Shown: one piece after another, positions 6,973 through 58,743 of the stretch
How positions within the stretch are numbered: the stretch's first letter is position 1
Layout: every line of letters starts with the position of its first letter
Source: a phage
Reading direction: 5' to 3' (one strand)
DNA: 64,000 nt
Assembly (NCBI GenBank): GCA_012646185.1
Contig: GCA_012646185.1_4706.1
The notes under the pieces: generated by a model
What the model saw: only the letters and a program-made list of their open reading frames with translations
What the model was told of the DNA's origin: nothing
Database searches by the model: none
Translations under genes and position numbers: made by a program

Positions 6973-9384
6973 TTAAACGTCCTCGATAGGCAAAGGTTTA
7001 ACAATCAAACGATTGAGCGGATTCGATAGACGCATACTGATAGGCTTATACGCAGCATGATTCGTCTCACTTAGAGCCACTGATCTGAAACGACCGTTCA
7101 ACTGTTTGTAAATCGGTTCTATCCAGAGACCTCGAAGATCACGTTTACGGAAACGTTGTTCGAACGGTTTGATTGGGGTTACGGTTAACCCACGCAACGA
7201 CTCTGACGGCAGACGCTCACGAAGGTCGCGTGGTGCCCGACCTGGGAACGGTGCAAGCCACAACCCGTCAAGCGGATTTTTACGGAAACGTAACGAGACA
7301 GGATCACTAATGACTTGTGCCCAATATTGCGTACTGAATCGAACGGTTTGGGTATTCTCGTAACCGCTACAGTCACACCAGGTTGGTTTCGGAGGTGCTT
7401 CCAAACTTTCAACCGCTGATTCACGCCAGTTCGTCATCGGGTTGTTATCATGTACGAATTTGATAACTTCCGTAGCCTGGTTATCCGTATCATGAACGTT
7501 TGCCTGTGCCCAGTCTTCCCACAGTTCTTCACTACCACTTACTAAACTCGAACCAAGACGAACGGCGATTTTGTTTAGTGGTTTGATTGGATCACTGTTG
7601 ATTGTCTGGATAAAATGGATGGTGTAACTGCTCAATGTCTTAAGCAGCTGCAGCATTCCGTATTGAATATCCTTAAGACTGGTGACATCTTCCAAATCTT
7701 GACCGGTGGCCTTTGTGAAGATATCGAGAGCCAGAATTCCCGCCTCTTCTTGACTGATTGCGTCAAGCTCCCAATCCATCGCTAAGAACCATTCCTTGTA
7801 AAGCTGCCCAATACCGAAGTCGACACCAACATCCATGTAAAAGTTTTCAACGATTGCTTCAGCCATACCTCGAGCTTGATAATGCTCTTGGAGCTGGTAC
7901 ATGAACTGATGACGACGCCAGCCCTGGTAGATCTCGGTAACGGCGGTCAGAAACTCTTCAGTACTGACGACCGGACGCAATGTTACTTGCTTATCCAAAC
8001 ACCACCAGATCAGTTTATCGGGAATGATAGCAGGATCGGTAATGCTACGGAGATGGTCGAATGTCGGTAGCGTTAACACCCTGACGTGGTTAGCATGGAT
8101 CTTAGGTACTTCAATCAGCGTCATGCCCATCGAATAGTTCAGCAAATACAAGAACAGCTTGTAGGCATCTTTCATCGACATCGTCATGGTATCACCCGTC
8201 ACCGGGTTGGTTGTCGTTAACCGTGACTGATACATGCCTATCGCGCTAAGATGAATCCATTCGTTCAGCAGGAAATCATACTTAGGATACAGTTCACTGT
8301 CTGTAAGGTCTTCGGCTTCACTTTCCAACACCTTGGTCGTTAAGGTATTGTTGTCGTGCATCGACATCTTCTCTATCGTGCGGTTAAGCTCGGTATAATA
8401 CTCCGCTTCGTTATCCCGCGCTAGAGGGAACTGTTGTTGCATCACGGTAGTGACCTTACGTCTTACCGTGCCATTACCGACGATCTCTTGAAGGTTAAGC
8501 GGTTTACGCTCCATGTAAACAGCAGGTTTTAACGTCTGGGGTATCTCGGAAGCGTCTTGTTTGATCGAGAACGCACCGATTGGAATCCCACGATCGGTTA
8601 ATACCTTTTGAATGAGCTTATCGTAGTTTTCCGTTCTGCCCATGTTTCTTTCAACGTAAGCGATGTTACGATAGAACCAGAGCATTTGGGATTCGGTCAT
8701 GTATCGCTTGAATCGATCAAGACCTTGATGACTTGCCAGATAACTCCAGATATGGAAGCTATGGGCATAATGGGTATGACAGTTTTCCCAACGAATACCT
8801 TTTATCATCTCAGGTATTTGTGTGAATAGGATGGCGTATAGCGCAGGCCAATGAAGCATATCGACGCTCTCGTATGCCGGATGTTCCCAGCGTCTGAAGT
8901 AATCGTCGATTTCTTGCTGTAAACGTGGAATAAGATTGGCCTCGCGCGACTCAACCTCTTGTGTATCGTACCAGAGAATCTCATGATTGCGTGCCGCAAT
9001 TGCTTTCTCGATATCGATGGGGTTAAGGATACCCAAGATCAACATACGTTGTTCCGGGTACCGCGCAATTAAACGATTGAAATAATCTCCACCATACGCG
9101 TATTCCCTTGCCGTCATGCGATGCCGTAACATGTTTTCCTTAGTGAACTCGATCTCTTCGAGCGTATCCAGGGAATTTACGGTCATCATTGTCTGACAAG
9201 GATGATACTCGCCAGCGAGATTCATGTAGTATAACCACGTGCGTGGGTCGTCCCCGACGGCCATCTGGTAGACTTCGGAAACCTTGAGGTTTAACCGTTC
9301 TGCCGTGATGTCGCTTTTAATAATCAGGGTGTCCGTTAGACGCTGCACGCTTTCCGAATAAAGCTGATAGTCAGTGTTGGACAC
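6973..9384 (-). CDS. hypothetical large protein (~803 aa), start moved to GTG at 9382-9384
   Basis: Track start is TTG at 9453; the in-frame GTG at 9384 has a GGAGGA ribosome-binding site 7 nt upstream and avoids overlap with the divergent 9412 gene. C-terminus carries three short RFRKxxLxGLWxxP repeats. Confidence 0.75.
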   Translation of the reverse strand: MSNTDYQLYSESVQRLTDTLIIKSDITAERLNLKVSEVYQMAVGDDPRTWLYYMNLAGEYHPCQTMMTVNSLDTLEEIEFTKENMLRHRMTAREYAYGGDYFNRLIARYPEQRMLILGILNPIDIEKAIAARNHEILWYDTQEVESREANLIPRLQQEIDDYFRRWEHPAYESVDMLHWPALYAILFTQIPEMIKGIRWENCHTHYAHSFHIWSYLASHQGLDRFKRYMTESQMLWFYRNIAYVERNMGRTENYDKLIQKVLTDRGIPIGAFSIKQDASEIPQTLKPAVYMERKPLNLQEIVGNGTVRRKVTTVMQQQFPLARDNEAEYYTELNRTIEKMSMHDNNTLTTKVLESEAEDLTDSELYPKYDFLLNEWIHLSAIGMYQSRLTTTNPVTGDTMTMSMKDAYKLFLYLLNYSMGMTLIEVPKIHANHVRVLTLPTFDHLRSITDPAIIPDKLIWWCLDKQVTLRPVVSTEEFLTAVTEIYQGWRRHQFMYQLQEHYQARGMAEAIVENFYMDVGVDFGIGQLYKEWFLAMDWELDAISQEEAGILALDIFTKATGQDLEDVTSLKDIQYGMLQLLKTLSSYTIHFIQTINSDPIKPLNKIAVRLGSSLVSGSEELWEDWAQANVHDTDNQATEVIKFVHDNNPMTNWRESAVESLEAPPKPTWCDCSGYENTQTVRFSTQYWAQVISDPVSLRFRKNPLDGLWLAPFPGRAPRDLRERLPSESLRGLTVTPIKPFEQRFRKRDLRGLWIEPIYKQLNGRFRSVALSETNHAAYKPISMRLSNPLNRLIVKPLPIEDV

Positions 9385-9411
9385 GATCGGTCCTCCAAGG
9401 AGCCAGTGTAA

Positions 9412-12321
9412 ATGAACGATATAAATAAAGGGCGCGTCGCCCTCGAACGTCAAATGAGCAATAATGACGTTGCGAAGGCACTCATGAACAAATTTGTCGC
9501 TCCTGCTCCGCAGTCACGTCTTTATAATACACGTGATGCGGAAGGAGCGAACGGTCGTTTCGGGTTAGTTGTTCCCGACCAAATGACGATGAACACGGTT
9601 ACGCGTGCGACCGCGACAAACATCGAGGATAATAAAAACATCCTCGAGTTGTTCCCTGAACTTAAACGCGTGATGCAGATCTATGTTGCCGCGTTGACGA
9701 ACCCTAACGATCTTAAGACGGTCGAGATGTTTATCGACAGCGAAGATTTCCCCGGCAGAGTCGCAGAAATCGTTCAGCCGATGATCGATACCATCGACAC
9801 GCATTTTAAGAATATCTATAAAATAAAGACGCTTATCCCTCGTATCATCGAAGACGTCTTCTTTATCAAGGGCAGTTATAACTTCGTTGTTCTGCCAGAA
9901 AGCACGCTCGACCGCGCGATTAATGGTAACGGTCAACTGAAACTTGAAGAATACGGATTTAAAGACAACCATTTTGCAAGTTGGGGGCTTCTAGGTAACG
10001 ACAGTCGCAAACGCCACGAAAATCAATTACCCGCGACGGTTTCGATGGAAGATTATTTCTCGGGTGTTAATGAAACCATACCGTACGATCCTGTTGTTCG
10101 CATAGACAGCATTAAGTTTACCAATACCCTGCTTCGCGATAAGGACGGTAAATTCATTGAAGCGAAGATCGATATTCCGGATATGGTTACGGTTGTCGAT
10201 AACCCAGACATCCTCCGCATGCCCATTCTGCATCAACGTCGAGCAGCGACAGCAGTGCAGCGTGCGTTACGCGCAAACACGTTAGGAGGTAGTGGTTTGG
10301 TAACGCTGTCAGGCGATCCGACCCTAACCGCTAACCGACGCGAGCTAACGCAAGAACAGGTTAACGAGATCTGGAATAAGCTCAACATCCAACGTCACAC
10401 TAAGGTATCTCCCGTTTACGCGTTGGCGACTCCAGATACGCTTGATCGTCAAAGCGTCGGTCATCCTGGTGTGATGCACGTACCACCTGAGGCATTAGAA
10501 CCCGTACATGCGCCCGGTGATCCTGAGAACCATATCGGGTATTTGGTTCAGTTGGATGAGTTTGGTTATCCGGTGCGTTTGGTTGAAGATGCTGCATATT
10601 ACAAGCAGTTGGAAGGTCGGTTGTCGAAGATCACTGCAGATATCGCAGGCACGTCAAGCAACGGCATGGCGAGCGAGATGATTGGTGCGGCCAAGAACAT
10701 GATCCAAGGTACGTCATGTAATCAGGTAGACATGTCGGCCTTCGTATCGTCGTACGAATCGCTGATGCAACGTTACATCGTTGAACGTATTGTCAACGGT
10801 TATCTTGGCAGTGCGGTGGAGATCGGTGCGACATCATCGTTTTACCTATCGATGCTTGCCCGTAGCCTCGCTCACAAGCAGACCCGTGTTTTGTTTATTC
10901 CTCGAGAGATGGTGACTTACATCGCCTATGAATACAACAAATACGGTATCGGTCGTTCGCTGCTTGAAAGTACGAAGATGATCTCGTCGCAACGAGCCAT
11001 GCTCATGGTTCAAGAACTAATGGCGAAAATCAAAAGTTCGTTGAACTATACGACGTTAAGCGTAATGCTTGAAGACACCGACAGAAACCCGGTCGATACC
11101 GTCGAACAAGCACTGCATAGTTTCGCTCGTGTCTACCAGTCTGGTTTCCCGTTGGGTGAAACTAACCCGATGGATATCATCAACGCGTACGAACGAAGCT
11201 CGATTCGATTGAAGGTTGAGGGGAATAACCCACGCTTCCCGAAATTGAATACAGACGTCAGCGTTGAGCAGCGTAACTATCAGTCTCCTGATAATGAGCT
11301 GATGGATCGTTACCGTCGTGACCATTTCATGGGCTTGGGTGTGTCTCCGGAGATTATCGATACTTCCTACCAATCTGAATTCGCAGCTTCTGTGATTACA
11401 GCTAACGCGATGCAAGAGAAACAGTTCACGGTTTGTCGTGAGGTGATCACGAATGGATTATCGGACCACATCAAGAAATATACGGCATACAGTCCCGTGT
11501 TGTTGACGTCGTTACGAAACACGGTTCGTGCGAACATGTCTAAGCTCTCCCAGGCACAATTGAAGCAGCTTTTTGGTAGCGATTTCGAAAACGGTGTTAT
11601 CCGTAACGTTAACGCCTATCAGGAGATTGACGACCAATCAGCAACAATGGATCTGGATTACACTAAACCAGAAGTCCAGGAAGTTATTGCCGATGCTTAT
11701 GTGTCCATGTTCTTAAACAGCCTGCGTGTGCGTTTACCAGATAGCAATGCTCGTCGCCTTGAAGATCAGGTACGTGAATATAATCAGTACAAGGAAGCGA
11801 TTACTGCGCAACTTGATGATTATTTAACGCCTGATTACGTCATGGGTCTGGGTGGGGTTGATGAAACAACGCTGCAGATGATCCGCGCATGCATTATTGG
11901 TACCGCGATGCGTACGTGGGCAAAAGAGAACAACTTCAATCAGGAGCTGGCTGATCTCTTCAGTCTTGACGATAAGAAGAATGCCGTGCAAGATTGGAAA
12001 CGTATGTCCATGGAACATATTGAAGTCATGGGTAAATGCATGGGTGATTTTGCATTGTATATTCAGAATCTGACGAAGAAGATTGAAGAGAAGATGGGAG
12101 CTCAAGCACAGGACGGCAGCGTTTCATCTGACGGTTCGTGGTCATCCGATTCAAGTAGCGATACCGGTTCTTCTGATGACTTCGGTGGCGGTGACGATTT
12201 CGGAGATACTGATTTCGATACCGAAACGATGGAGGAAACCTCAACAGAAGAAACAACCACATCTGAGGATACGACGACCGACACAACGTCAGAAGACGAT
12301 ACTTCAGGTGGCGTTGTCTAA
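9412..12321 (+). CDS. large virion-type protein (969 aa) with acidic S/T/D-rich C-terminal tail; possibly portal (weak guess)
   Basis: ATG with AAGGAG ribosome-binding site 9 nt upstream; C-terminal ~70 aa low-complexity acidic tail; A-run and terminator hairpin downstream. Confidence 0.8.
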   Translation: MNDINKGRVALERQMSNNDVAKALMNKFVAPAPQSRLYNTRDAEGANGRFGLVVPDQMTMNTVTRATATNIEDNKNILELFPELKRVMQIYVAALTNPNDLKTVEMFIDSEDFPGRVAEIVQPMIDTIDTHFKNIYKIKTLIPRIIEDVFFIKGSYNFVVLPESTLDRAINGNGQLKLEEYGFKDNHFASWGLLGNDSRKRHENQLPATVSMEDYFSGVNETIPYDPVVRIDSIKFTNTLLRDKDGKFIEAKIDIPDMVTVVDNPDILRMPILHQRRAATAVQRALRANTLGGSGLVTLSGDPTLTANRRELTQEQVNEIWNKLNIQRHTKVSPVYALATPDTLDRQSVGHPGVMHVPPEALEPVHAPGDPENHIGYLVQLDEFGYPVRLVEDAAYYKQLEGRLSKITADIAGTSSNGMASEMIGAAKNMIQGTSCNQVDMSAFVSSYESLMQRYIVERIVNGYLGSAVEIGATSSFYLSMLARSLAHKQTRVLFIPREMVTYIAYEYNKYGIGRSLLESTKMISSQRAMLMVQELMAKIKSSLNYTTLSVMLEDTDRNPVDTVEQALHSFARVYQSGFPLGETNPMDIINAYERSSIRLKVEGNNPRFPKLNTDVSVEQRNYQSPDNELMDRYRRDHFMGLGVSPEIIDTSYQSEFAASVITANAMQEKQFTVCREVITNGLSDHIKKYTAYSPVLLTSLRNTVRANMSKLSQAQLKQLFGSDFENGVIRNVNAYQEIDDQSATMDLDYTKPEVQEVIADAYVSMFLNSLRVRLPDSNARRLEDQVREYNQYKEAITAQLDDYLTPDYVMGLGGVDETTLQMIRACIIGTAMRTWAKENNFNQELADLFSLDDKKNAVQDWKRMSMEHIEVMGKCMGDFALYIQNLTKKIEEKMGAQAQDGSVSSDGSWSSDSSSDTGSSDDFGGGDDFGDTDFDTETMEETSTEETTTSEDTTTDTTSEDDTSGGVV

Positions 12322-21285: not shown

Positions 21286-21906
21286 TCACAAACGACGCAG
21301 GCGATAATGGATGGAACGATTGGTGCAATATGAACGGAACAGCGGCAATTGCGCAACTTCCGCAAGACTCATATTAATTCGCAGGTGTTCAATAACGGCG
21401 CTGTAGTTATCAGCAATACGATCGCTCAATAACTCTTCTGCCAATAAAGGAAGACAATCGACAACAATCGCGATCACATCCTCATTAACATAACGCACCC
21501 GAACACTCAGCGGACGTTTGTCTGGGCTGTAAGTTGGATCCGCCAAACGACGTTCAATATCACGCGGATAGCTCGTCAGTAAATGGTAATAACCATTGTC
21601 ATAACGATTGATGTACTCACACAGCACATCAACATTCTTCTCTGGCGGCAAACCTGTTTCGTCATAGTGATACGCAAACATACCACCAAGCAGGTTGTTA
21701 AGATGAACCGCAGGGTTCGCTTGTTCGTGTTCTTTCGTGATGAAGAAAGGCACGTTCTGGGCTGCGAAATAAAAACCTACATCATTGGGCGATAGTATGC
21801 CGAAAAGACTTTTAGGGTCTAATAACACCTGTAAGTCATCACGCGCATTTCGAATAATCGCGTGTTCTACCCAATTCGGAACGACGAGATATCGGAGTTC
21901 CTTCAT
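21286..21906 (-). CDS. hypothetical protein (206 aa)
   Basis: ATG at 21904-21906 with AAGAGG ribosome-binding site. Confidence 0.8.
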   Translation of the reverse strand: MKELRYLVVPNWVEHAIIRNARDDLQVLLDPKSLFGILSPNDVGFYFAAQNVPFFITKEHEQANPAVHLNNLLGGMFAYHYDETGLPPEKNVDVLCEYINRYDNGYYHLLTSYPRDIERRLADPTYSPDKRPLSVRVRYVNEDVIAIVVDCLPLLAEELLSDRIADNYSAVIEHLRINMSLAEVAQLPLFRSYCTNRSIHYRLRRL

Positions 21907-21945
21907 TATGATTACCTCTTTGCAAGTATCGAAAGGATTGAGTCG

Positions 21946-23556
21946 ATGGACCCAAAACAGATAGCCATTAAGATTATTACGTTACTGTTTCGTAATGCAC
22001 AATTGAACCATCCCGATCCCAGTACGATCGAACATGTTAAATCCGTCTTAGATAAAGTCGAACCCCCGAAAAACCATCTCGCTACAGACGTAGATAGAGA
22101 GGTTTTCAACAACCTGATGAATACCATTCATTGGATGTTGGAACAACCATTATCGGAACCTTTCGATAAACAACAGTTGTTACAAAGGATACGTTTGGAT
22201 TGCCTTGAACAAAGCAATCTTTACGAGATTCTTGCCGACGGACTGTACGATATCGAAGACGACGCTCATATCAGTAAGGTCTGTTCGCTCTATTACAATG
22301 AATTACGTAATCTGATTACCCGGCGTCGTGTTTTCGAAACCTTTAAAAACACGTACATGGATATCAGTAACGGGCGACTTGGGGATAAAGAATTTTTCGA
22401 TGCGATGGCGAATCTGAAATTATCGCTAGACAGTATCGAAATGGATACCGAAAATCCCGAAGAGATGTCGTGTATGATTGACGGCTTTATCGCTGACAGC
22501 GAAGACGATATCGAGAAAGTTGAACGTATGTTCGTCAAAGCGATGGAACGTAACAGTCCTGAAGGTGGATTTGTAACCGGCTGGCAAGGCTTTAATAAAA
22601 TGTTGGGGTCGGTCGGCGTTTTACGTCGCGGTACCTTAGGACTGATTGGTGCAATGCAGCACCGGAACAAGTCAGGCGTGTTGTTAAAACTGTTCACACA
22701 TCTGGCATTGTACAACAAACCCCATTTCTTTTTCCCAGAGCGAGCAAAGAAAGCATTACTGATTCATTTGTCGACAGAAAACGAAGTGGAAGAAAACACG
22801 CTTCAGATATACAAGAACATGCGAGAACAGGAAACGGGCGAATATGTCGATATTCGTAAGATTGACCCTCGCGAGGCATCACGTTATGTGTTGAAGGTGT
22901 TCAACGATGCGGGTTTCTCTGTTTGTATGCGTCGTGTTGATGGGATGAGTTATAAACAACTCGCTAATCTCATCGACCATTTCGAACGCATGGGTTATGA
23001 AGTCATGGCGTTGTTCATTGACTATCTGAAAATGTTCTCATCGGAAGGGTTGGATAGAAATGGACCGACCGGCGCATGGCTCCAAGAACTCTTCAACAAA
23101 GTCCGTAACCTCTGCAGCGTTAAACGTATTTTAGGTATGACGGTACACCAGCTGTCATCCGATGCGAAGATGCGTGCGCGTGATGGTAACGATGAAGAGT
23201 TTGTTGACCAGGTCGCAGGTTTAAGTTACTGGGATGGTTGTAAAGGGATCGACCGTGAGATTGACCTTGAGGTGATTGTTGATATCGTTAAGGAGCCGGG
23301 CAAACGTCAAAGTTGGCAGGTCTTTGCGTTAGGGAAAGACCGTCAACCGGATAACGGTTCAACGAAACCTGAAGACAAACATTTCGCGATGCCATTCCAA
23401 ACCATCGGGATGCTTCCTGATGATTACGGTAAGAAAGCAGTATACTGCCGCAAGGTTGGCGGACAACCTGTCTCCGAGGGAGGTAAAGGTCCGTGGAACA
23501 AGTTCGATGAAAACGCAGCACCGAGTAATGAATTACAATTTGATTTAGAATTTTAA
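21946..23556 (+). CDS. putative DnaB-like helicase (~536 aa) with atypical P-loop
   Basis: Start moved from GTG 21862 to ATG 21946 (AAAGGA, 8-nt spacer). GWQGFNKMLGSVGVLRRGTLGLIGAMQHRNKSG parallels the DnaB Walker A region; ALFIDYL resembles DnaB Walker B IDYLQL; QLSSD follows. Confidence 0.5.
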   Translation: MDPKQIAIKIITLLFRNAQLNHPDPSTIEHVKSVLDKVEPPKNHLATDVDREVFNNLMNTIHWMLEQPLSEPFDKQQLLQRIRLDCLEQSNLYEILADGLYDIEDDAHISKVCSLYYNELRNLITRRRVFETFKNTYMDISNGRLGDKEFFDAMANLKLSLDSIEMDTENPEEMSCMIDGFIADSEDDIEKVERMFVKAMERNSPEGGFVTGWQGFNKMLGSVGVLRRGTLGLIGAMQHRNKSGVLLKLFTHLALYNKPHFFFPERAKKALLIHLSTENEVEENTLQIYKNMREQETGEYVDIRKIDPREASRYVLKVFNDAGFSVCMRRVDGMSYKQLANLIDHFERMGYEVMALFIDYLKMFSSEGLDRNGPTGAWLQELFNKVRNLCSVKRILGMTVHQLSSDAKMRARDGNDEEFVDQVAGLSYWDGCKGIDREIDLEVIVDIVKEPGKRQSWQVFALGKDRQPDNGSTKPEDKHFAMPFQTIGMLPDDYGKKAVYCRKVGGQPVSEGGKGPWNKFDENAAPSNELQFDLEF

Positions 23557-23582
23557 ACGCAAAAAAAAAAGATTGTGCGGTT

Positions 23583-23614
23583 CCCTCCTCCAACCCGTAA
23601 GGGAAGGAGGAGGG
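23583..23614. terminator. conserved terminator hairpin between convergent genes
   Basis: CCCTCCTCC-AA-CCC-GTAA-GGG-AA-GGAGGAGGG preceded by A10 (U10 after hairpin on minus strand). Confidence 0.8.
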
Positions 23615-23630
23615 GTTATGACCGCTTTGA

Positions 23631-23957
23631 TTAACTTATTGTCATGAATTCATTAGGTGAAAATTTCCAGCCGTTCTCAGTGAGAAGCGTGTTGAGTTTC
23701 GCTGCAACGATAAGCCATGCATGCATGGCTGTTACATCGTATTGGCGATTCACTCGACGTTGGTTTTCGATATTGATTTGCTCCTGTTCAGTGATGTTTG
23801 GATAAAGTGCGATAGCGCTAGGTTTACCCAGCGCGCTAGTCATCACCGCCGTACATTCACTGATAATGTTGTTTAAGTGGTAGTTATACACCGTTCCACG
23901 CATGACGCGATGACGGCATTCGATAATAGCGTCGTAAATGATTTCTCGAGTAATCAT
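23631..23957 (-). CDS. hypothetical small protein (108 aa)
   Basis: ATG at 23955-23957; terminator downstream. Confidence 0.75.
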   Translation of the reverse strand: MITREIIYDAIIECRHRVMRGTVYNYHLNNIISECTAVMTSALGKPSAIALYPNITEQEQINIENQRRVNRQYDVTAMHAWLIVAAKLNTLLTENGWKFSPNEFMTIS

Positions 23958-44475: not shown

Positions 44476-47469
44476 ATGAGCGTAACCAACAAAGATCTTG
44501 CTGAACAGCTCAATCGTTATATGCTTTCACCTATTGAAATGCAGGCTGTTGCAAGCGATATGATCCGTTTGGCCTCTGATGGTGAATTAACCCTGGTTGA
44601 TCCCAGCTGTCCGTTTGTTTATCTGCTGGAGGTTGCAACGGCAACGGCTGCGAACCAGAACGCGCGGGATGAGTCCCGTGTTCGCGAACTGTATCCAAAA
44701 CTTGCAACCAACTGGAACCAGCTCTATCGTTGGATGTATGATGAGTCGTACGTCGGACGTTTCGCGATGCCGGGTAAAACGGAAATCATTTATTCGTTAG
44801 GGTATCAGGAAATCCTCGATCGGGCTGTAGAGATTCCCAACACCATTGCCTCCGATGATTTAAGCCGTTCTTACAGCCGTAAGTTAGTGATACCACGTAC
44901 GACGGCGTTTACGGTGGCCGGAATGGATTTCGGGTTACATTATCCCATCGAAATCCAAGTACAAGCGCATGATCAGATCCGCGTCGTTTATAACACCGAT
45001 AACATCAGCCCATTGCAAACCTTGGAGAGTAACCAAGTTGAGTACGGGGTTGTTCGTGTAAAAGCGGGTAAAGTGTTGGTGATGCGTATCCCGCTGTTCC
45101 AGTTTAAAACACTGGTAAAAGATGTGCCGTTTAACAGCGTTCACGGGATGAACAGCAGCATTACCTTCGAAGATCAGTTTTACCATTGTCGTGCGTACAT
45201 GTCGTCGGATAACGATACCTGGACGGAGATAGCGACAACGCACAGTCAACAGATCTACGATCCGTTAACACCAACCATCGCGTTACAAGTAGAAGGGAAC
45301 AAACTTAACTGGCGTGTTCCTGAAATCTATTTGTCTCAAGGTACGATGGATAAAAGCACCATTCGACTTGAGGTGTTGACGACGAAAGGGAAAATCAGCG
45401 TCGACCCGTCTGATTACGATGTGACCGACTGGAAAGATAATTACATCGATTTGTCGCCAAAAGCCGAACAGAAATACAGTGCGCCGCTAAGTGCATTCAA
45501 CATTAAAGGGATTTATAGCGAAGGGGCGTTGTCGGGCGGACGATCTGCGTTAACGTTCGAGGAACAACGTGAACGTGTTATGGCAGGTGTGAACAAAACC
45601 AAGGTGCCGATCACAGGAACGCAGGTCGAGCTGGTGCTTCAAGATGCGGGTTACGGGATGGTGACCACCATCGACAACGTAACTAATCGTTCGTTCCTGG
45701 CAACCCGAGATTTACCGCAATTGAGCGACAGCGTACCTCAAGCCGGTTCGTTGATGGGGTCTTTCTATACGTCAGCTGCAGCATTGGTGAAAAGTAAGTT
45801 TGTCGCCGATAACGGCGATCGTATTACGATTAAACCTGATTGCTTGTATCGTGACAGTAACGGAAGTATCGCACTGTTGTCAGACGATGAAATTGACCGT
45901 ATTAATGCAGGCAACTCTGATGCGAAGTTGAACGCGGTAAACAACGCCATGTTGTTCTACAGTCCGTTTCATTACGTATTAGATGCAACAAGCGATTTCG
46001 ACATCCATGCTTATTACCTGGATGCCCCTAAGATCGGCACGCAAGCATTCCTCGACGCGAACGAGACAATCCCGTTAACCGCTATGGTGACCGGATACCG
46101 TCTGGATCGTATCGCTGAAGGATATCGTCTAAGCCTCATTGTAGAAGGTAACGACGCGTGGAAGGCGCTCGACGATAAAAACGTGCACATCCAGCTGGGG
46201 TTCAATCCGCGGGGTGAGGGTGATTATGCGACGATGTTAGCATCGCCTACAACCGATGAACAAGGTCGTCGTTTGTTCACCTTCGATATCACCACGAATT
46301 ACGATTTTACACGAATCCTGGCTGATGATTCCACGGCGTATGAACCGTATATCGCATTGACCTCTTTCTCGATGTATGAATCGACACCGCGGGCTTACTG
46401 GGCATCACTGCAGCAGTATTTGGAAATCTTCCATGTGGTGACGGATTACGCGCCGGAAGATGTCGACGGTATTTTACACAGCGCTTCCGATAATTACCTG
46501 GTTAAGAAACTCACGCTTCAAAATGGGTATTGTTTCTACCGTGAACGTCTCACCGCAACCTTTGGTTATGATCTGGACGGTCTTTGGATGCGCTCACGTA
46601 CGGTGGCCTCGGAGATTACGTATAAACGTTACACCGAGAACATTCCGTGGGTGTATGACGAAGATATTCCAGCGACGGATGAGACCGGTTCGGTTATCAT
46701 TGAGCAAGGCGATGATGGTACGTTGTCGGTTAAATATCTGCATCGTAAAGGTGACCCGAAATTAAACAGTGATGGAAGCCAAGCCTATCGTTATCTGAAA
46801 GGCGACATCATGAAAGATAATTACGGTAATCCGATCCCTGTCGATGAACGTGAGGTTCTGCGTAACCTGGACATGTTCTTTATCGATGCGTCGTATCTGC
46901 TCGCGAACGATACGGACGTGATTGACTATCGTAACACGATTCCTACACAGCTTATTGAGTGGATTCAGAACGATATCAGCACGTTCAGGAATTTCTGTTA
47001 TGAGGAAACAGAGATTTCATTGTATCCTAAGCAATCGCTGGGGTATGTGGATGTGATTGTGGAAAACGGATTGGAAACAACGCTTCCTGCTGCCTTATCG
47101 TTCAACGTGACGCTTTACTTACCGGCTAAGCAATACGCTGACCTGGATTTACGTCAAGTTCTTCAAGCGATGGTATCGAAAGTCATCAACGAATGCTTAA
47201 CATCCCGTACGGTGGCTAAAGCAGAAATGATCGCGATGATTCGTGAGGAGGGCGGTGACGACATCCTTAACGTTGAAATCGATGATTTTGGGCCAGGTAA
47301 GAACCTCAGTGTTTATACCGCGAAGAACGACGGCGTTCGTTGTGCGGTGAAGAAAGAGCTTTATGTTAAAGCGGATGGTATCTTGTCCGTACGTGAAGCG
47401 ATCGATGTGAGTTTTGTGAAACACGCACAAAGCAACAGTTCAGCGCTAGCGCAAGGCCTTCGTGTCTAA
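44476..47469 (+). CDS. large hypothetical protein (997 aa)
   Basis: ATG at 44476 with GAGGGA ribosome-binding site; starts 3 nt after the upstream stop. Confidence 0.85.
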   Translation: MSVTNKDLAEQLNRYMLSPIEMQAVASDMIRLASDGELTLVDPSCPFVYLLEVATATAANQNARDESRVRELYPKLATNWNQLYRWMYDESYVGRFAMPGKTEIIYSLGYQEILDRAVEIPNTIASDDLSRSYSRKLVIPRTTAFTVAGMDFGLHYPIEIQVQAHDQIRVVYNTDNISPLQTLESNQVEYGVVRVKAGKVLVMRIPLFQFKTLVKDVPFNSVHGMNSSITFEDQFYHCRAYMSSDNDTWTEIATTHSQQIYDPLTPTIALQVEGNKLNWRVPEIYLSQGTMDKSTIRLEVLTTKGKISVDPSDYDVTDWKDNYIDLSPKAEQKYSAPLSAFNIKGIYSEGALSGGRSALTFEEQRERVMAGVNKTKVPITGTQVELVLQDAGYGMVTTIDNVTNRSFLATRDLPQLSDSVPQAGSLMGSFYTSAAALVKSKFVADNGDRITIKPDCLYRDSNGSIALLSDDEIDRINAGNSDAKLNAVNNAMLFYSPFHYVLDATSDFDIHAYYLDAPKIGTQAFLDANETIPLTAMVTGYRLDRIAEGYRLSLIVEGNDAWKALDDKNVHIQLGFNPRGEGDYATMLASPTTDEQGRRLFTFDITTNYDFTRILADDSTAYEPYIALTSFSMYESTPRAYWASLQQYLEIFHVVTDYAPEDVDGILHSASDNYLVKKLTLQNGYCFYRERLTATFGYDLDGLWMRSRTVASEITYKRYTENIPWVYDEDIPATDETGSVIIEQGDDGTLSVKYLHRKGDPKLNSDGSQAYRYLKGDIMKDNYGNPIPVDEREVLRNLDMFFIDASYLLANDTDVIDYRNTIPTQLIEWIQNDISTFRNFCYEETEISLYPKQSLGYVDVIVENGLETTLPAALSFNVTLYLPAKQYADLDLRQVLQAMVSKVINECLTSRTVAKAEMIAMIREEGGDDILNVEIDDFGPGKNLSVYTAKNDGVRCAVKKELYVKADGILSVREAIDVSFVKHAQSNSSALAQGLRV

Positions 47470-47490
47470 AACAAAATAGCATGAGCATAA

Positions 47491-47522
47491 CCCTCCTCCA
47501 ACCCGTCAGGGAAGGAGGAGGG
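47491..47522. terminator. conserved terminator hairpin between convergent genes
   Basis: CCCTCCTCC-AA-CCC-GTCA-GGG-AA-GGAGGAGGG. Confidence 0.75.
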
Positions 47523-47531
47523 AATATGCTG

Positions 47532-50500
47532 TTATCTTACGTTATTGCTGTTCTGCTGTTCGCTGAACCAACCGTACACCTTGAGATCGGTACCGTATTT
47601 CAATGCGATATACGCATTCAGTGCGGCACAGAACAAAGACGCGAATGCCCATATCAGCGAAGGATCAACATCTTCCGTTACCACCGGGAGAGTATTATCC
47701 GGTTCCCATGATGGAGAACTGTCCATGAACGTCGTGACCATTACTCGCCGTTGTTCTTCGGTGGTAAAGTCGCTATGAGGTTCCAACGCTTCTTTTGCCA
47801 GACGTCGATATTCGAACATATGCGTTGCTAAAGCCGATGAGTTACCAGATTCGCCTTCATAGTTCGGATCCACCGCATAACAGAGTTCTGTTGAATCTAA
47901 CAAAGCAACCGCCTGTGTGATGCTGTCGGCAGTGCCTGCACCATAGAGTTCGATAGACCGCGAAAGCTTCTCACAGAACGCATCCAACGCGGCAGGATTG
48001 GACACCTGAAGGTCAAGGCCTAATGTCCACGGATAGTTACTGAATACACCCGTAAACCGCGGCATAACACCCAACAGATGTTGTCCGATTACAGCACGGT
48101 TATAAACAGCCCGGTTATAGACTTGAAACGCAGCCTCCAAAGCTTGGTTATAATGACGACGAAGTTCGTCACGAGAGTTGCGGAACCTGTTTGCCGCAAG
48201 ACTCGTGGCTGCGACGCTACAAACATCGTAATTGGTGGACGAGAGCACAGTTTCGTTAAGATCGAACGCTTCCTGTTTCAACGATCCGCTAACCGCTGCT
48301 GCTTCGCTGTTTGCTTTATCGACAACAGTACTCAAAGCGTTGATGTAACGTTTAGCTCGGACTTCCAGCCATTGTGCGATGCCGAGAACATCCACAGCGG
48401 CTTTAGCAAGGTCACGCGCGTTCACGATTTCGTTCTTCAAGGCACCCAACCCTTTATTCTCAGGCGAAGAGGCTTGTTGACGAATCATGCTGTTTAACAT
48501 GGTAAGCAGATTATCCAACTCGTGCCCACTGACCTTGTTACGCGCATCGGTAATCGGCCCTTGCAGGAATTTACGGCAACCATCGTTGTATCGAATCAGT
48601 TTATCCACATCGATAGATTCGTTCGTGGATTCCTTGAACTGATCCTTCAATTCTTCACGGTAGTCATGGATTTCACTTGCGAGATTATCGATAGTGATAC
48701 CATCATGTCCAAGAAGAACTTTATTGAAGTTACCTTTCTCGAATGCCAGAGCAAGACCTTCACGAATCTTAGCGAGTTTATCCTGATCAAGTTCACGACC
48801 GTTCGATAGCTCTTTCACTTCCGAGCTGATTAATGCCGAAACGTTACCCAGATTGTCGGTAACCCCTTTGAACGCTCCCGACCAGATCGTTCCTGCTTCA
48901 GCGTATTTCGCAATGGTCTGAATACCGACGGTGTGCAGCGACGCTAAACGTTTCTTCGTGCCTTCGGTAAGCAGAGCGTCTTTAGCTCGCGTAAGCTGGC
49001 TGTTATTAGCTTCCGCCTGCTGAATCGCTGCTTTCGCACTTCCATTACGCCAGCTCTTAACCAGCCAATCAACCAAACGTTTTAGGATGTTGACGGTATA
49101 TTCCATCGTCCGCCGTAACGTTTCCCACGCGCTTTCTGCGGTATAGATGCCGTACCCTTCCATCTTCAACGCTTTCAAGCTTGTTTGACGTGCCAGCCAT
49201 TCTACCGTTGCGGAACAAACGTTTACAAAGGCTTCCAGGTAGGTGTAATAGACGTCTGTTGCCGACGTTTCGTTGAACTTTGAATGCAGATAGAACTGAT
49301 CGTAAAGTTCGTCGTCATCGCCGAAGGCATCATAGTTCCACAGTTCTGTATCACAACCTGTACCGCAGAAGACGTCAGCTGTCGTAAACTCTTTAAGCGC
49401 TTTAGCTGCATCATTCGTCAGGAATTTACCCGTTTCGACTACATCGTCGACATTAAGCTTGGGGAGTTCGTCGGTGACTGGCTCTTCCAACATCAGCATA
49501 TTGAAGAATGTGCTGTACTTGTATCCGAGCCATTTTGGATAACTGCTTTCAGGGATCGTAGACAACGGCTTGATTTTCTTGGCTTCAGCCAATGTGTCTT
49601 TTGCGACCTGATATTGGTTTTCCCCAGCCTTGACGCGACGTAATGCTTTTTCTTCCAACTGCTTAAGCTTGGCATGGCGTGCTTGTGCTGGAGCTTCAAC
49701 AAGTTTTTGTACTGACCGCATTGCAGAAATCGCTTCTTTTAATACGATCATCGGCATACGAACTTTGCCGTCGTCGAAACTAAGAGCGCGAGCGACACGT
49801 TTACTTACGACAGGCTTATCATGGATATTTCGTTCCACCCATGATTTGTTTGCGTAAGTTTGAGCGATCTGCTGTTGGATATTTTCAAGGTATTTCCAGC
49901 CGTTGGAAGCTTTGTTATCCAGAAGCGGATTCGGTCCCTTCTTATCGAAAAGTTTCAGAATCGGACCAAAGAAACCTTCCTGTACGAGTTCGATACGCGT
50001 GTATCCGTCAGCCGCTTCGATTTCTTCTTGGGTTTTGTCCCAGAGCTGTTCACTACGGACAGCAGTAGCTGTTTCAGATACCGACATAACAAGCTCGGCA
50101 ACAACTTCAGCACAGGTCAGTACGGTACGCACGCATTGCACTAGCATACGCTGGTAAACGATACGTGCGTTTTGTAGACGTGCGATAACCGCTAAATAAC
50201 CGATATTGTCAAGACGTTCGTCGGCTTGAGCAGAGTCGACACGTTCTATCAGTTGTTTAACCAGCGCGGCTGTTTCCGGATAATCGTTCACGACGTCACG
50301 CATAATTCGTGATGCGAAAACCGCGGTACCTAAAACGTTAAGAAGTGTTTTACCGTCCCATTCTTTTGGTGTCGCTACCGATTCGGTAGGGATGAGATTT
50401 CCCGCTTGATCGAAGTATGGCATAAGGACATTGATATCCGTAGACGGTACTGCGGTGATTGCGTTGTACTCTTCATCCGCACCATCGTTGCCAGACGGCT

Positions 50501-54481: not shown

Positions 54482-55792
54482 TTACGCGACGACAGAGTCG
54501 AGTTTCGCTGACACTTTGAACAGATCGTTGTTCATTGTGGAAGAAAGGACTTGTTGAATTTCTTCCTGTTTAACGGCTTTACGAACCCCAGGACGAAGGA
54601 TAAGCGTAACCATCTGTGAAAAGGTACGATTATTGTTCATCGCACTCAGCGTTTCATCGATTGTTTTGATGGTATCCAGCGTCATGGAACGAACATCGCT
54701 TGGGATATCACGATCTTTCAAGCGTATAATTAAATCTTGTTTGATTTTACGGAATCGTTCCATGTCGTTATCGTAAATGCTGTATGTTGGATCTAACCAA
54801 ACAGAAAGCGCGGTTACGGCCACAACAACCAACACACCGATAGCGCCAACAGAAGCTAAACCTATCGCCATCATAGAGGCTATAGTAGCATCCATGATGA
54901 AGGAGAGCCAGAACATCGTTTTGGACTTCATGGAGTTGGTGCCATAAAGCCGATACATTTTAGCAAGCCCGCTAACGAGATACTCCCCACTACCGTGACG
55001 CGTAGCGAACTGATCAGCCATGAATTCGGAAGCAACGTCAGTGTATCGACCAGCATTGTTTACATTTCGTAACTGCATTGCTCTGTTAGACACGTAAACC
55101 GTGTACCAGACACTACCATCGTCTGAATCACTGATTTTGTCTACGTCAACGTTGGTATCCAACGTTTTGTTTAACGCTTTCGCCAGTTCGATACGTTTTA
55201 CCTTATCGGTTGTTCCCAACAGTTCACGCTGTACGGTCATGATCGAGGCTTCGACACGAACCGTTTCTGATAATGTTTCAAGGAAAGTAAATGCGTGCCC
55301 GATTTCATGCAGCATTATGGCTGCTTTTTCTTCCGGAAGAAAGGGTTCTGTCGCTGTTAGCAGTTCATACGTGATGGCAGAACGAATCTTCAACTCCTCA
55401 AAGATACCGTAAACACGACCTTTTTCTAAATCGACGTAACCGACAGGTGCATCTTTAATCTTCTTAAGGAGTGCGACACCATCAGCACCACGCATCCATA
55501 ACCGATGATAGTCCGCCAGGATCGTGTTGTTTGTCGAAATATCCGGTGGGTACACGTAGGCGTTCATCTGGCCCATTTTCATGTCGACCGAGAATTCGAT
55601 GTTCAACCCCGTATAGCGTTTAACCATCTCGGTTAAACGACCGTCCTTGAAAACGTTTAAAACCTCTTTTTTATCCAGTCCCTGTTTGCTTCTGAAGAAC
55701 TCGGTCATTTCCTTGAACAAGGAACCATCTTGAAACTTGATGGCTTCCATCGTTAATTCGTCATGACCATACACGCGTTGTAGTAATGACAT
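54482..55792 (-). CDS. putative zinc metallopeptidase (HExxH) with hydrophobic membrane segment (436 aa)
   Basis: MLHEIGHAF motif with Glu residues downstream; ~40-aa hydrophobic stretch FWLSFIMDATIASMMAIGLASVGAIGVLVVVAVTALSVWL. Confidence 0.8.
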   Translation of the reverse strand: MSLLQRVYGHDELTMEAIKFQDGSLFKEMTEFFRSKQGLDKKEVLNVFKDGRLTEMVKRYTGLNIEFSVDMKMGQMNAYVYPPDISTNNTILADYHRLWMRGADGVALLKKIKDAPVGYVDLEKGRVYGIFEELKIRSAITYELLTATEPFLPEEKAAIMLHEIGHAFTFLETLSETVRVEASIMTVQRELLGTTDKVKRIELAKALNKTLDTNVDVDKISDSDDGSVWYTVYVSNRAMQLRNVNNAGRYTDVASEFMADQFATRHGSGEYLVSGLAKMYRLYGTNSMKSKTMFWLSFIMDATIASMMAIGLASVGAIGVLVVVAVTALSVWLDPTYSIYDNDMERFRKIKQDLIIRLKDRDIPSDVRSMTLDTIKTIDETLSAMNNNRTFSQMVTLILRPGVRKAVKQEEIQQVLSSTMNNDLFKVSAKLDSVVA

Positions 55793-55803
55793 TGTACACT
55801 CTC

Positions 55804-55821
55804 TAAATTTACGTAAATTTA
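55804..55821. promoter_or_regulatory. perfect 18-bp palindrome TAAATTTACGTAAATTTA in divergent intergenic region
   Basis: 12 nt upstream of the metallopeptidase start codon, inside the 220-nt gap before the polymerase gene; operator or leader hairpin. Confidence 0.35.
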
Positions 55822-56013
55822 AGGGCTAATGGATCGGCTGGCCGCACCAATCACAATGTGTCCGCTGCTATGCAACGGCATTCATAGAAATACCTTTTGA
55901 CGGTAACATCACCCATCACACCCCAAGCAATAAGAGTGGTCGGTTAAAAACAACAGAACGTGGGGATGATATAGAAAATCACCTTTTAACACTTATTACG
56001 AGTTTATCAAGCC

Positions 56014-57513
56014 ATGAGCGAACAAGAACGAAAACCTAAGAAGAAACTGCTCGGTATTCAATGTCGACACATCAGCTATAACGAAGCGAACGACGGCAGC
56101 AAGAACGACCTCATGATCGCAAAAGAGATCATGTTCTTTGATGACAATACGCAAGCGACGAACCTTCGCTTCTTTGAGAATTACAAACGTCCGTTTTGGG
56201 TGACGGTAGAGAGTAAACGTAAGAACAAATATAAAAAGGAAAGCGAGAAGCTCTCGCATGTGCGTCGCTATGATGTCCGCCAAAGTGAACTGGTTGAAAA
56301 GATCAGTTCGGTGCTTTATAAAAGACGTGCTGACGATAACACCCGTTTACAGCAGCTTGCACGGAGTCCATACCTCTACGGCACGGACGTTAGCGCCAGC
56401 TGTTATTTAAAAACCCAGTACAACACAAAATGGCCGGAATACGTCGATAAATTACCCGCTTCCATTGCCTGTTTCGATATCGAAACCGACGTTGTCCATG
56501 GACATGGTAAGATCGTTTGTATGTCTATTACAATGGGATACAATGCGATACTTTGCTATACCAAGGACTTCGTTGGTCATATTCCGAATGCGATTGAGAA
56601 AACCCATGAGAAGATTCGATATTACCTGGCCGAACGTCTGAATACCAAAGAAGATCCTCATGCGTTCGAAAAATATCAGTACGATGTGCGAATCGTAGAA
56701 AGTCCGGCACAAGCAGTCATCCAATGCATGCAGAAGGTTCACGAATGGCAGCCGGATTATCTCCTTGGCTGGAATATCGCGTTCGATATTCCGCGCATGC
56801 TCCAGGCACTGAACGAGGAAGGGTATCGTCCCGAGGATGTTTTCTCCGATCCTCGTGTACCCCCTAAGTATCGTATTGCTCGCTGGGTACCACCGAAGAC
56901 CGACAAGGTATCTGCTTCAGGCCGTAAAACCAACCTTACCCTCGAGCAGACCTGGCCGATGTTTTATACGATGGCTACGTATCAGGTTATGGATGCGATG
57001 TGTGGTTATAAGTTCGTTCGTTTAGGAAGACCGGATGAGGGACGCTATTCACTCGATGCGGTGTTAGAGCGTAATAAATGCCATACGAAATTAAAAGCGA
57101 TTCCTGGTACAGAAGGGTTCACGGAGCTCGCCTGGCACGAAGAGATGCAAACGAACCATCAAATCGACTACGGCGTATATAACCTTTGGGATAACCAAGG
57201 TATTGAGGCGTTGGACCAGAAAACAAAAGACTATTCGATGACCATCCCGATTCGTTTAGCGGCGTCGGATTTGAAAGATTTCAGTTCCAACCCTAAACGT
57301 ATCTGCGATAAACTTTTCTTCGTGTATCTTAACCGTGGGGAAGTCATGGGATGCACCGCCGACGACATGACCCAGGAAGAAGATAAGTGGGTTATCTCAC
57401 GAACCGGACATATCGTCACATTACCATGCGATCTCATGGCGGACAACGGCATTCATCTCTTCTGGGATATGCCTAATTTAAGGAGCTATATTCGATTATT
57501 TGTTGCGGATTAA
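56014..57513 (+). CDS. family-B DNA polymerase, N-terminal/3'-5' exonuclease part (5' exon plus read-through to in-intron stop)
   Basis: Exo I FDIETD, Exo II GWNIAFDIP, Exo III YNLWD in T4-like order and spacing; no polymerase motifs A/B/C; ORF ends at the start of the intron region. Confidence 0.75.
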   Translation: MSEQERKPKKKLLGIQCRHISYNEANDGSKNDLMIAKEIMFFDDNTQATNLRFFENYKRPFWVTVESKRKNKYKKESEKLSHVRRYDVRQSELVEKISSVLYKRRADDNTRLQQLARSPYLYGTDVSASCYLKTQYNTKWPEYVDKLPASIACFDIETDVVHGHGKIVCMSITMGYNAILCYTKDFVGHIPNAIEKTHEKIRYYLAERLNTKEDPHAFEKYQYDVRIVESPAQAVIQCMQKVHEWQPDYLLGWNIAFDIPRMLQALNEEGYRPEDVFSDPRVPPKYRIARWVPPKTDKVSASGRKTNLTLEQTWPMFYTMATYQVMDAMCGYKFVRLGRPDEGRYSLDAVLERNKCHTKLKAIPGTEGFTELAWHEEMQTNHQIDYGVYNLWDNQGIEALDQKTKDYSMTIPIRLAASDLKDFSSNPKRICDKLFFVYLNRGEVMGCTADDMTQEEDKWVISRTGHIVTLPCDLMADNGIHLFWDMPNLRSYIRLFVAD

Positions 57514-57606
57514 CCTTCGTTCTGTAAAAACTTACCGATATATAGAAATTACTGTGAGATACCAAAGGTACTCGTAAGTTTAGTAATTTCTGAGCGGTAG
57601 GTAAAT

Positions 57607-58743
57607 ATGTTGGAACATCTTGAACATTTAGACAATGAATACTTAAATTTCACCAATCGTCGTTATCGTATCTTCGAAGACGGTACACTTTACGATTACA
57701 AAGAGAATTGTAAAGTACCTGTTATAATAGAAGATAACAACTCTTACGTTATTATCGATTGGTATCGTGGGGTTGGTAAATACGAATTGGGGATGATCAT
57801 GCTTACAGCATTTGATCGCATCCACATTCCTAACTATCTTTACGATGAAATTGAATCGTTGTTTATTGATAACGACCCGACGAACTTTTCGTATAGTAAC
57901 CACATCTATCGTTTCCGTAATGGACCGCTGGCTGTGGAAGGGTATCCGGGATATTACTACATCCCGTTTGCCACGTACTATGCGCTAAATGAACAAGGTG
58001 AATGTTTAAGTCTTTTGTCTGGGGAAGGTATAACGTGGACAATGACGCAGCAAAACGGTACGCGGCGTCCCGGCTATCGATACAGAAAGGTAACACCTGA
58101 TAGCGGTTTTACGGCTCAGCTGTATCGTCATCGAGCGATGATGTTGACGTTTCGTCGTTACGACGCAAGCGTTGTGGAAATGACCGTTAATCACAAGAAC
58201 GGTATTAAAGGCGATGATTGGCTGGATAACCTGGAATGGGCAACCTACAAGGAAAACAACAATCATGCGCGTATAAACGGTTTATGTGACGGCAAAGCGA
58301 AACCTATCAAGATCTTTGATTATAATCGTCATACCGAACGTCATTTCAAGAGCATCGCTGAGGCGGAACGTGCGTATCCACACGTAGCAAAAGGACGTTT
58401 CAAATGGTGGGTTGAAAATCCACCGAAACGTATACCTGAATGTAACCTCTACATCAAACATGCGTTCGATAATACTCCGTGGCCTGAATGGAAACTGGGT
58501 GATGAACGACGTATTGAAGATGTAGCGGGTATTCCGATTATCGCCCTTAACATGGTTACAGGCGAGAAACGAGTGTATTCATCGGTTACAGCTGCGGGTA
58601 AGGATACGAAAACAAGTTGGATAACAGTACGACGTCACTGTGATAAGCGTGTCGTTCCTGTTAAACAAGCATGGTGTTTCCGTTATGCTGACGACGTCAA
58701 AAACATGCCTGAGTTAACTTCCCTACCAACAATCGAACAGTAA
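57607..58743 (+). CDS. HNH homing endonuclease (378 aa)
   Basis: ATG start; motif VNHKNGIKGDDWLDNLEWATYKENNNHA (His-Asn-His); located inside the intron. Confidence 0.8.
   Translation: MLEHLEHLDNEYLNFTNRRYRIFEDGTLYDYKENCKVPVIIEDNNSYVIIDWYRGVGKYELGMIMLTAFDRIHIPNYLYDEIESLFIDNDPTNFSYSNHIYRFRNGPLAVEGYPGYYYIPFATYYALNEQGECLSLLSGEGITWTMTQQNGTRRPGYRYRKVTPDSGFTAQLYRHRAMMLTFRRYDASVVEMTVNHKNGIKGDDWLDNLEWATYKENNNHARINGLCDGKAKPIKIFDYNRHTERHFKSIAEAERAYPHVAKGRFKWWVENPPKRIPECNLYIKHAFDNTPWPEWKLGDERRIEDVAGIPIIALNMVTGEKRVYSSVTAAGKDTKTSWITVRRHCDKRVVPVKQAWCFRYADDVKNMPELTSLPTIEQ

Follow-up and report, generated by a model that had tools for sequence, protein, structure and literature searches.

The gene at positions 21946–23556 of a phage contig (GCA_012646185.1_4706.1, GenBank assembly GCA_012646185.1) very likely encodes the replicative DnaB-type helicase (superfamily 4, RecA-fold) of a chimallivirus related to Goslar, one of the jumbo phages that form a nucleus, and the change in its P-loop is very likely not inactivating. 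The protein is a member of the Pfam family PF20307 (divDNAB, divergent DnaB-like ATPase). The window, which is the whole stretch of DNA that was analysed, is 64,000 nucleotides long. A preliminary description had called the product a DnaB-like helicase with a non-canonical P-loop, either a divergent active helicase or an inactivated pseudo-helicase or loader. The DnaB-like assignment was borne out: the family profile, the profile alignment to DnaB and the predicted fold all point to DnaB, and not to a different fold. As to the choice that was left open, the evidence favours an active enzyme and disfavours the pseudo-helicase or loader.

Family membership and relation to DnaB

The gene is 97.6% identical in nucleotide sequence, with 100% coverage, to positions 46471–48081 (gp043) of Escherichia phage vB_EcoM_Goslar. 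The RefSeq annotation of Goslar gp043 (YP_009820728.1) is 'DnaB-like replicative helicase'. The two proteins are 99.8% identical, with a single amino-acid difference (N55S). There are 39 nucleotide differences between the two genes, nearly all of them synonymous; 38 codons differ, 37 by synonymous changes and one by a non-synonymous change, and the gene is therefore under strong purifying selection. Since the nucleotide identity over the helicase gene is 97.6%, the window belongs to a Goslar-like strain that is distinct from Goslar itself. Window coordinates equal Goslar coordinates minus 24525, so that the whole window corresponds to approximately Goslar 24526–88525. The gene has the same neighbours in Goslar, with the major head protein encoded two genes upstream. 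The genomic context is that of PF20307, as the window is collinear with the Goslar genome, where a nuclear shell protein and PhuZ are encoded. At 99% identity, the protein falls in a cluster (P0001) of 129 member sequences from Logan assemblies, which indicates that close relatives recur in public sequencing runs.

PF20307 was matched with E = 1.4e-120 and 402.7 bits (cut-off 26), over profile positions 3–355 of 356. The match to PHROG 3213 had E = 5e-123, whereas that to the canonical DnaB family PHROG 19 was weaker (E = 2.6e-11). An NCBIfam search of the protein gave no relevant match. By tblastn, the family was found in 282 phage records, almost all of them phiKZ-like jumbo phages and most already annotated as carrying a DnaB-like helicase, with hosts among Pseudomonas, Erwinia, Salmonella, Vibrio, Serratia, Aeromonas, Klebsiella and Ralstonia. 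A second tblastn, with P0020 as query, found nothing beyond the first. An exhaustive profile search collected 1603 clusters (50% identity) at E ≤ 1e-3, and 654 at E ≤ 1e-30. The window protein shares only 22–35% identity with most PF20307 members.

The family has been described in related phages. A divergent DnaB with a modified ATP-binding motif was presented as a defining trait of the group-1 (phiKZ-like) jumbo phages (Iyer et al. 2021, PMC7824862). The helicase was assigned, like the capsid gene, to core block 5, its phylogeny was congruent with the trees of the DNA polymerase, the capsid and other core genes, and the RAY protein gp315 was localised inside the phage nucleus (Prichard et al. 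2023, PMC10299810). The phiKZ orthologue gp118 (PHIKZ118, 7976–9451 on the minus strand, adjoining gp119–gp120) and RAY gp315, both in PF20307, share with the window protein the remodelled P-loop, the catalytic residues and a location next to the capsid gene within core block 5. In a preprint of October 2026 that deals with the polymerase of phiKZ (PMC13648687), the helicase is still only predicted, as a divergent replicative helicase of the DnaB type.

The relation to DnaB itself had to come from profile and structure comparison, because the Pfam models of DnaB gave no match. A profile built from 22 family members matches solved DnaB structures (Aquifex, 4nmn, E = 5.5e-6; Geobacillus), and hhalign against E. 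coli DnaB gave E = 3.7e-6 with 87% probability. The AlphaFold model has a mean predicted local distance difference test score (pLDDT) of 78.5, with values of 85–90 around the P-loop. The top 50 matches found by Foldseek in the PDB are all DnaB-type helicases (Vibrio, Geobacillus and E. coli DnaB, T4 gp41, SPP1 G40P), with E down to 6e-16. The alignments to full-length DnaB extend over about 500 columns and cover both domains; the structural alignment to 4zc0 comprises 344 residues. The predicted fold is thus nearest to DnaB.

The model consists of an all-helical N-terminal domain, a candidate linker helix and a RecA-like C-terminal ATPase domain (Table 1). DnaB-type helicases are the closest structural relatives of the ATPase domain. 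The helical N-terminal domain and the linker helix that precedes the ATPase domain are recognised on structural grounds only. Conservation was evaluated with an alignment of 170 sequences (the query and 169 relatives, most from separate 50%-identity clusters). An aromatic residue is found within the last six positions in 155 of these 170 proteins. The disordered C-terminal tail may be a docking motif. It recalls the acidic, Phe-terminated tails by which T7 gp4 and gp2.5 dock to the polymerase.

The P-loop and the remaining active-site residues

The three motifs GAMQHRNKSG, IDYL and QLSSD that had been pointed out in the preliminary description are all present (Table 1). In the P-loop, G-A-M-Q-H-R-N-K-S aligns opposite A-A-R-P-S-M-G-K-T of DnaB, and the loop reads A236-x4-N241-K242-S243. 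The canonical Walker A pattern [AG]xxxxGK[ST] is therefore departed from at one position only, where the Gly that precedes the Lys is replaced by N241. The departure noted earlier is real, with the refinement that the Lys and the Ser are retained. A register with G235 as the first Gly of the motif was considered and rejected, as it places the Lys out of register; the DnaB alignments set A236 as position 1 and N241 at the position of the Gly.

Position 241 is occupied by Tyr in 72 sequences, Phe in 63, Asn in 17, Trp in 7, Gly in 4 and His in 4, so that a residue other than Gly is found in 166 of 170. The adjoining K242 is present in all 170, and so is a Ser or Thr at position 243. The P-loop of phiKZ gp118 reads GGLQHQYKSG. 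At least 53 changes of position 241 were counted on a neighbour-joining tree, against none of K242, E278 or D359. Asn recurs at this position in distant lineages, and the canonical GK[ST] is found in four members of the family. The non-canonical P-loop is therefore a hallmark of the family, in which its consensus is A-L-Q-H-x-[YFWN]-K-[ST]-G, and not a lesion peculiar to the gene of the window. The Goslar clade differs from the rest of PF20307 by Asn instead of Tyr or Phe before the Lys, by Met and Arg instead of Leu and Asn at two other positions of the loop, and by an extra C-terminal extension of about 15 residues.

In the remainder of the active site, motifs H1a, H2 and H3 and the lysine/arginine finger line up with E. 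coli DnaB in the hhalign alignment and are conserved across the family. The modified ATP-binding loop A-M-Q-H-R-N-K-S is thus combined with an intact Mg2+ and catalytic site, as in PF20307. The elements shared with bacterial DnaB, T4 gp41 and SPP1 G40P are the Walker A Lys and Ser/Thr, the catalytic Glu, the DYL of Walker B, the QL of H3 and the KxR arginine finger. The differences from these canonical helicases are the replaced Gly of GK[ST], an identity of about 13–15%, and the lack of a match to PF03796 or PF00772.

Section 3.4.1 of PMC7824862 places the modification of the family in the 'Walker B' motif. In the present alignments, Walker B (D359-Y360) is intact and Walker A is changed. The mention of 'Walker B' is probably a slip in the text, judging from these alignments.

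Activity of the helicase and alternative functions

Despite the change in its P-loop, the helicase is probably active. An active helicase is favoured over a pseudo-helicase or loader because all the other catalytic residues are invariant or nearly so, position 241 is labile, the gene is under purifying selection, and it is present as a single copy. Within the Goslar genome (237 kb), the family profile matches a single open reading frame, gp043. No second DnaB-type paralogue was found in the Goslar genome or in the window, and the other annotated helicases of Goslar (gp160 and gp164) belong to superfamily 2. In the published analysis of jumbo phages from group 1, the Mg2+ site was found to be intact, and the divergent DnaB was hence predicted to be probably active and to have diverged together with an unusual DNA polymerase (PMC7824862). 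In phiKZ, transposon-insertion sequencing (TnSeq) recorded 0 insertions in the 1476 bp of PHIKZ118, as for the major capsid gene, and the helicase gene looks essential (PMC12676376 supplement).

It is proposed that the helicase would assemble as a hexameric ring in the phage nucleus, and that nucleoside triphosphate (NTP) would be bound and hydrolysed where the subunits meet. The phosphates and Mg2+ would be held by K242 and S243, the water would be activated by E278, and R466 would be provided in trans by the neighbouring subunit as the arginine finger. The ring would move along one DNA strand in front of the split B-family polymerase and unwind the phage genome there. As for the remodelled loop, A-[LM]-Q-H-x-[YFWN]-K-[ST]-G would be a tolerated lineage-specific variant that does not inactivate the enzyme.

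Several points weigh against this proposal. The Pfam DnaB_C model (PF03796), with which it had been suggested to check the assignment, gives no match to the protein even at E ≤ 10; the dedicated divDNAB family was matched instead, and precomputed PF03796 matches exist for some relatives (P0004, P0013, P0018). The model of the DnaB N-terminal domain (PF00772) likewise gives no match at E ≤ 10. The N-terminal domain of DnaB usually partners with a primase; none is annotated in Goslar, the genome of which was not searched with primase profiles, and none has been identified in chimalliviruses. No published ATPase, helicase or oligomerisation data were found in the literature for any member of the divDNAB family. 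Two antisense oligomers directed against PHIKZ118 were without phenotype in a screen in which the knock-down efficiency for PHIKZ118 was not established (PMC12571901 supplement). Finally, a bulky aromatic residue or Asn at the position of the GK[ST] Gly is unusual for P-loop NTPases, and nucleotide binding could be weakened or altered.

The MCM helicases, the Walker A motif of which is GDPxx[AS]KS, are active although the residue directly ahead of the P-loop Lys is not Gly. This is an analogy only, as MCM proteins have an AAA+ and not a RecA-like fold, and the replacement is small (Ala or Ser) and not aromatic or Asn. Asn, for its part, readily adopts glycine-like backbone angles.

The two functional genomics data sets on PHIKZ118 conflict, with zero insertions in the TnSeq experiment and no phenotype with the antisense oligomers. 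No mention of gp118 was found in the main text of either phiKZ paper, and the data are in the supplements only.

It is conceivable, although unlikely, that the remodelled P-loop represents an adaptive re-engineering. It would then confer a changed NTP or deoxynucleoside triphosphate preference, a changed regulation, or an evasion of host factors that target canonical DnaB. The enzyme would operate within a primase-less replisome, where the DnaB-like N-terminal domain and the acidic/aromatic tail would recruit partners outside the canonical set, for instance the split PolB-Rhc polymerase or a phage RNA polymerase that carries out priming.

An improbable alternative is that of an active ring ATPase of the RecA superfamily whose main task is not fork unwinding. 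The protein would function in recombination or repair, with a branch migration activity like that of RadA/Sms, or in recombination-dependent restart of replication in the phage nucleus. The N-terminal helical domain and the linker align with full-length DnaB and the structural ranking favours DnaB, which speaks against such a function, as do the lack of a RadA-type zinc finger or Lon domain in a Pfam scan of the protein and the congruence of the helicase tree with those of the DNA polymerase, the capsid and other core genes (PMC10299810).

That the protein is an inactivated pseudo-helicase is likewise improbable. It would have kept the DnaB fold and lost the ATPase activity through its P-loop, and would serve as a scaffold, loader or adaptor that recruits, for example, the host DnaB or the phage polymerase. 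The replacement of the GK[ST] Gly, the absence of phenotype upon antisense knock-down of the phiKZ orthologue and the lack of biochemistry on the family in the literature are consistent with this possibility. However, pseudoenzymes normally shed their catalytic residues, whereas over the 170 sequences the Lys, the Ser/Thr, the Glu and the Asp of Walker B never vary, and the Gln of H3 and the arginine finger hardly do. Members with a canonical GK[ST] occur inside the same orthologous family, and the genome encodes no other DnaB-type helicase. The tolerance of the phiKZ orthologue to insertions is as low as that of the capsid gene, and the Mg2+ site of the divergent DnaB was judged intact (PMC7824862). 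A mis-called reading frame with P-loop and Walker B-like strings arising by chance would fit with the weak direct similarity to canonical DnaB and with the lack of PF03796 and NCBIfam matches, but this is refuted by the PF20307, PHROG 3213, Foldseek and structural matches to DnaB and has a negligible likelihood.

The preferred assignment, an active DnaB-type replicative helicase, is not new. The helicase and its unusual ATP-binding motif are already known: the reference phage carries an annotation for the gene, the proteins have their own Pfam family, and the motif was noted in 2021 (PMC7824862). As a discovery, the gene matters little, since gene and motif are already catalogued. The replisome of the chimalliviruses, which has a split polymerase and an RNase H-clamp subunit but neither a primase nor a clamp loader that is known, has only now begun to be reconstituted, and the helicase, as a core component, is a worthwhile target for biochemistry. 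Determining how a ring helicase acts when the P-loop Gly is replaced by Asn or an aromatic residue, and which partner its N-terminal domain has without a primase, would complete the picture of replication in the phage nucleus.

Gene boundaries and genomic context

The helicase open reading frame is real, with an ATG at 21946, a stop codon ending at 23556 and a product of 536 residues. The mechanically defined frame opens earlier, at an in-frame GTG at 21862, which would add 28 residues. This start was rejected and the ATG preferred, because all homologues begin at the aligned 'MD..', the ATG is preceded by a Shine-Dalgarno sequence, and the longer frame would run into the divergent gene upstream. 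The features of the gene are collected in Table 1.

Table 1 Positions of the helicase gene, its domains and motifs, and flanking signals in the window
Feature	Position	Strand	Residues	Remarks
Shine-Dalgarno-like AAAGGA	21932..21937	+		8 nucleotides 5' of the ATG; read off the sequence, start backed by aligned homologue N-termini
Coding sequence, divergent DnaB-like replicative helicase	21946..23556	+	536 and stop	Orthologue of Goslar gp043 and phiKZ gp118; from the open reading frame list, Goslar nucleotide match, PF20307 and PHROG 3213
N-terminal all-helical domain	21946..22380	+	1 to ~145	Counterpart of the DnaB N-terminal collar
Candidate DnaB-type linker helix before the ATPase domain	22501..22551	+	186–202	Putative, from the secondary structure of the model; hhalign alignment to DnaB begins here
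RecA-like ATPase domain	22558..23445	+	~205–500	
Walker A / P-loop GAMQHRNKSG	22648..22677	+	235–244	N241 replaces the Gly of GK[ST], K242-S243 kept; aligned to DnaB 'AARPGMGKT' / 'aarpsmgkt'
Catalytic glutamate, motif H1a	22777..22779	+	E278	Opposite the Glu in 'fsLEm' of E. coli DnaB (hhalign); 170/170
Walker B FIDYLKMF	23014..23037	+	357–364 (D359, Y360)	Aligned with DnaB 'midylqlm', 'vDYLqll'; D359 170/170, Y360 169/170
Motif H3 HQLSSD	23146..23163	+	401–406 (Q402)	Aligned with DnaB 'lsQLnr'; Q402 in 167/168 ungapped sequences
Lysine/arginine-finger motif K-D-R	23335..23343	+	K464-D-R466	Aligned with DnaB 'gKqRng' (hhalign); K464 166/168, R466 165/168
Disordered C-terminal tail	23455..23553	+	504–536 with pLDDT < 50	Gly-rich spacer, then acidic/aromatic GPWNKFDEN and NELQFDLEF
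GC-rich hairpin (23577–23625) followed on the minus strand by T10 (23561–23570)	23561..23625	-		RNA fold -32.2 kcal/mol, z = -4.5; delimits the helicase gene on its 3' side

The divergent upstream gene, similar to Goslar gp042, occupies 21286–21906 on the minus strand. Its start codon and that of the helicase gene on the plus strand are separated by a gap of 39 bp (21907–21945), and consequently any promoter, whichever of the two genes it serves, must overlap the coding or leader region of the other. A scan for sigma-70 promoters and terminators around the helicase gene gave no matches above the background of shuffled sequences. For sigma-70, this was expected as the phage has its own RNA polymerases. 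Downstream, the hairpin sits between the helicase gene and a convergent minus-strand open reading frame (23631–23957). It resembles an intrinsic terminator that would serve the convergent genes of the minus strand, because the T10 tract follows it on that strand. The Goslar record has no terminator annotated at the equivalent site.

The annotation of the 237-kb Goslar genome includes the DnaB-type helicase, an RNase H, an NAD-dependent ligase and a split PolB, and no primase, sliding clamp or clamp loader. Unlike in canonical DnaB systems, neither a DnaG-type primase partner nor a known loader is annotated. The missing primase annotation agrees with the published 'primase paradox' of the chimalliviruses; the group-1 jumbo phages were reported to be without DnaG-type and archaeo-eukaryotic (AEP) primases (PMC7824862).

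Around 55165–57944 of the window, corresponding by the coordinate offset to Goslar gp068–gp069, the Goslar annotation has a 'DNA polymerase' gene with an exonuclease domain, directly followed by a NUMOD1/HNH homing-endonuclease gene. The second polymerase gene of Goslar, gp244, is located far off in the genome. This is in line with the division of the polymerase into DNAP(N) and DNAP(C) that was reported for phiKZ.

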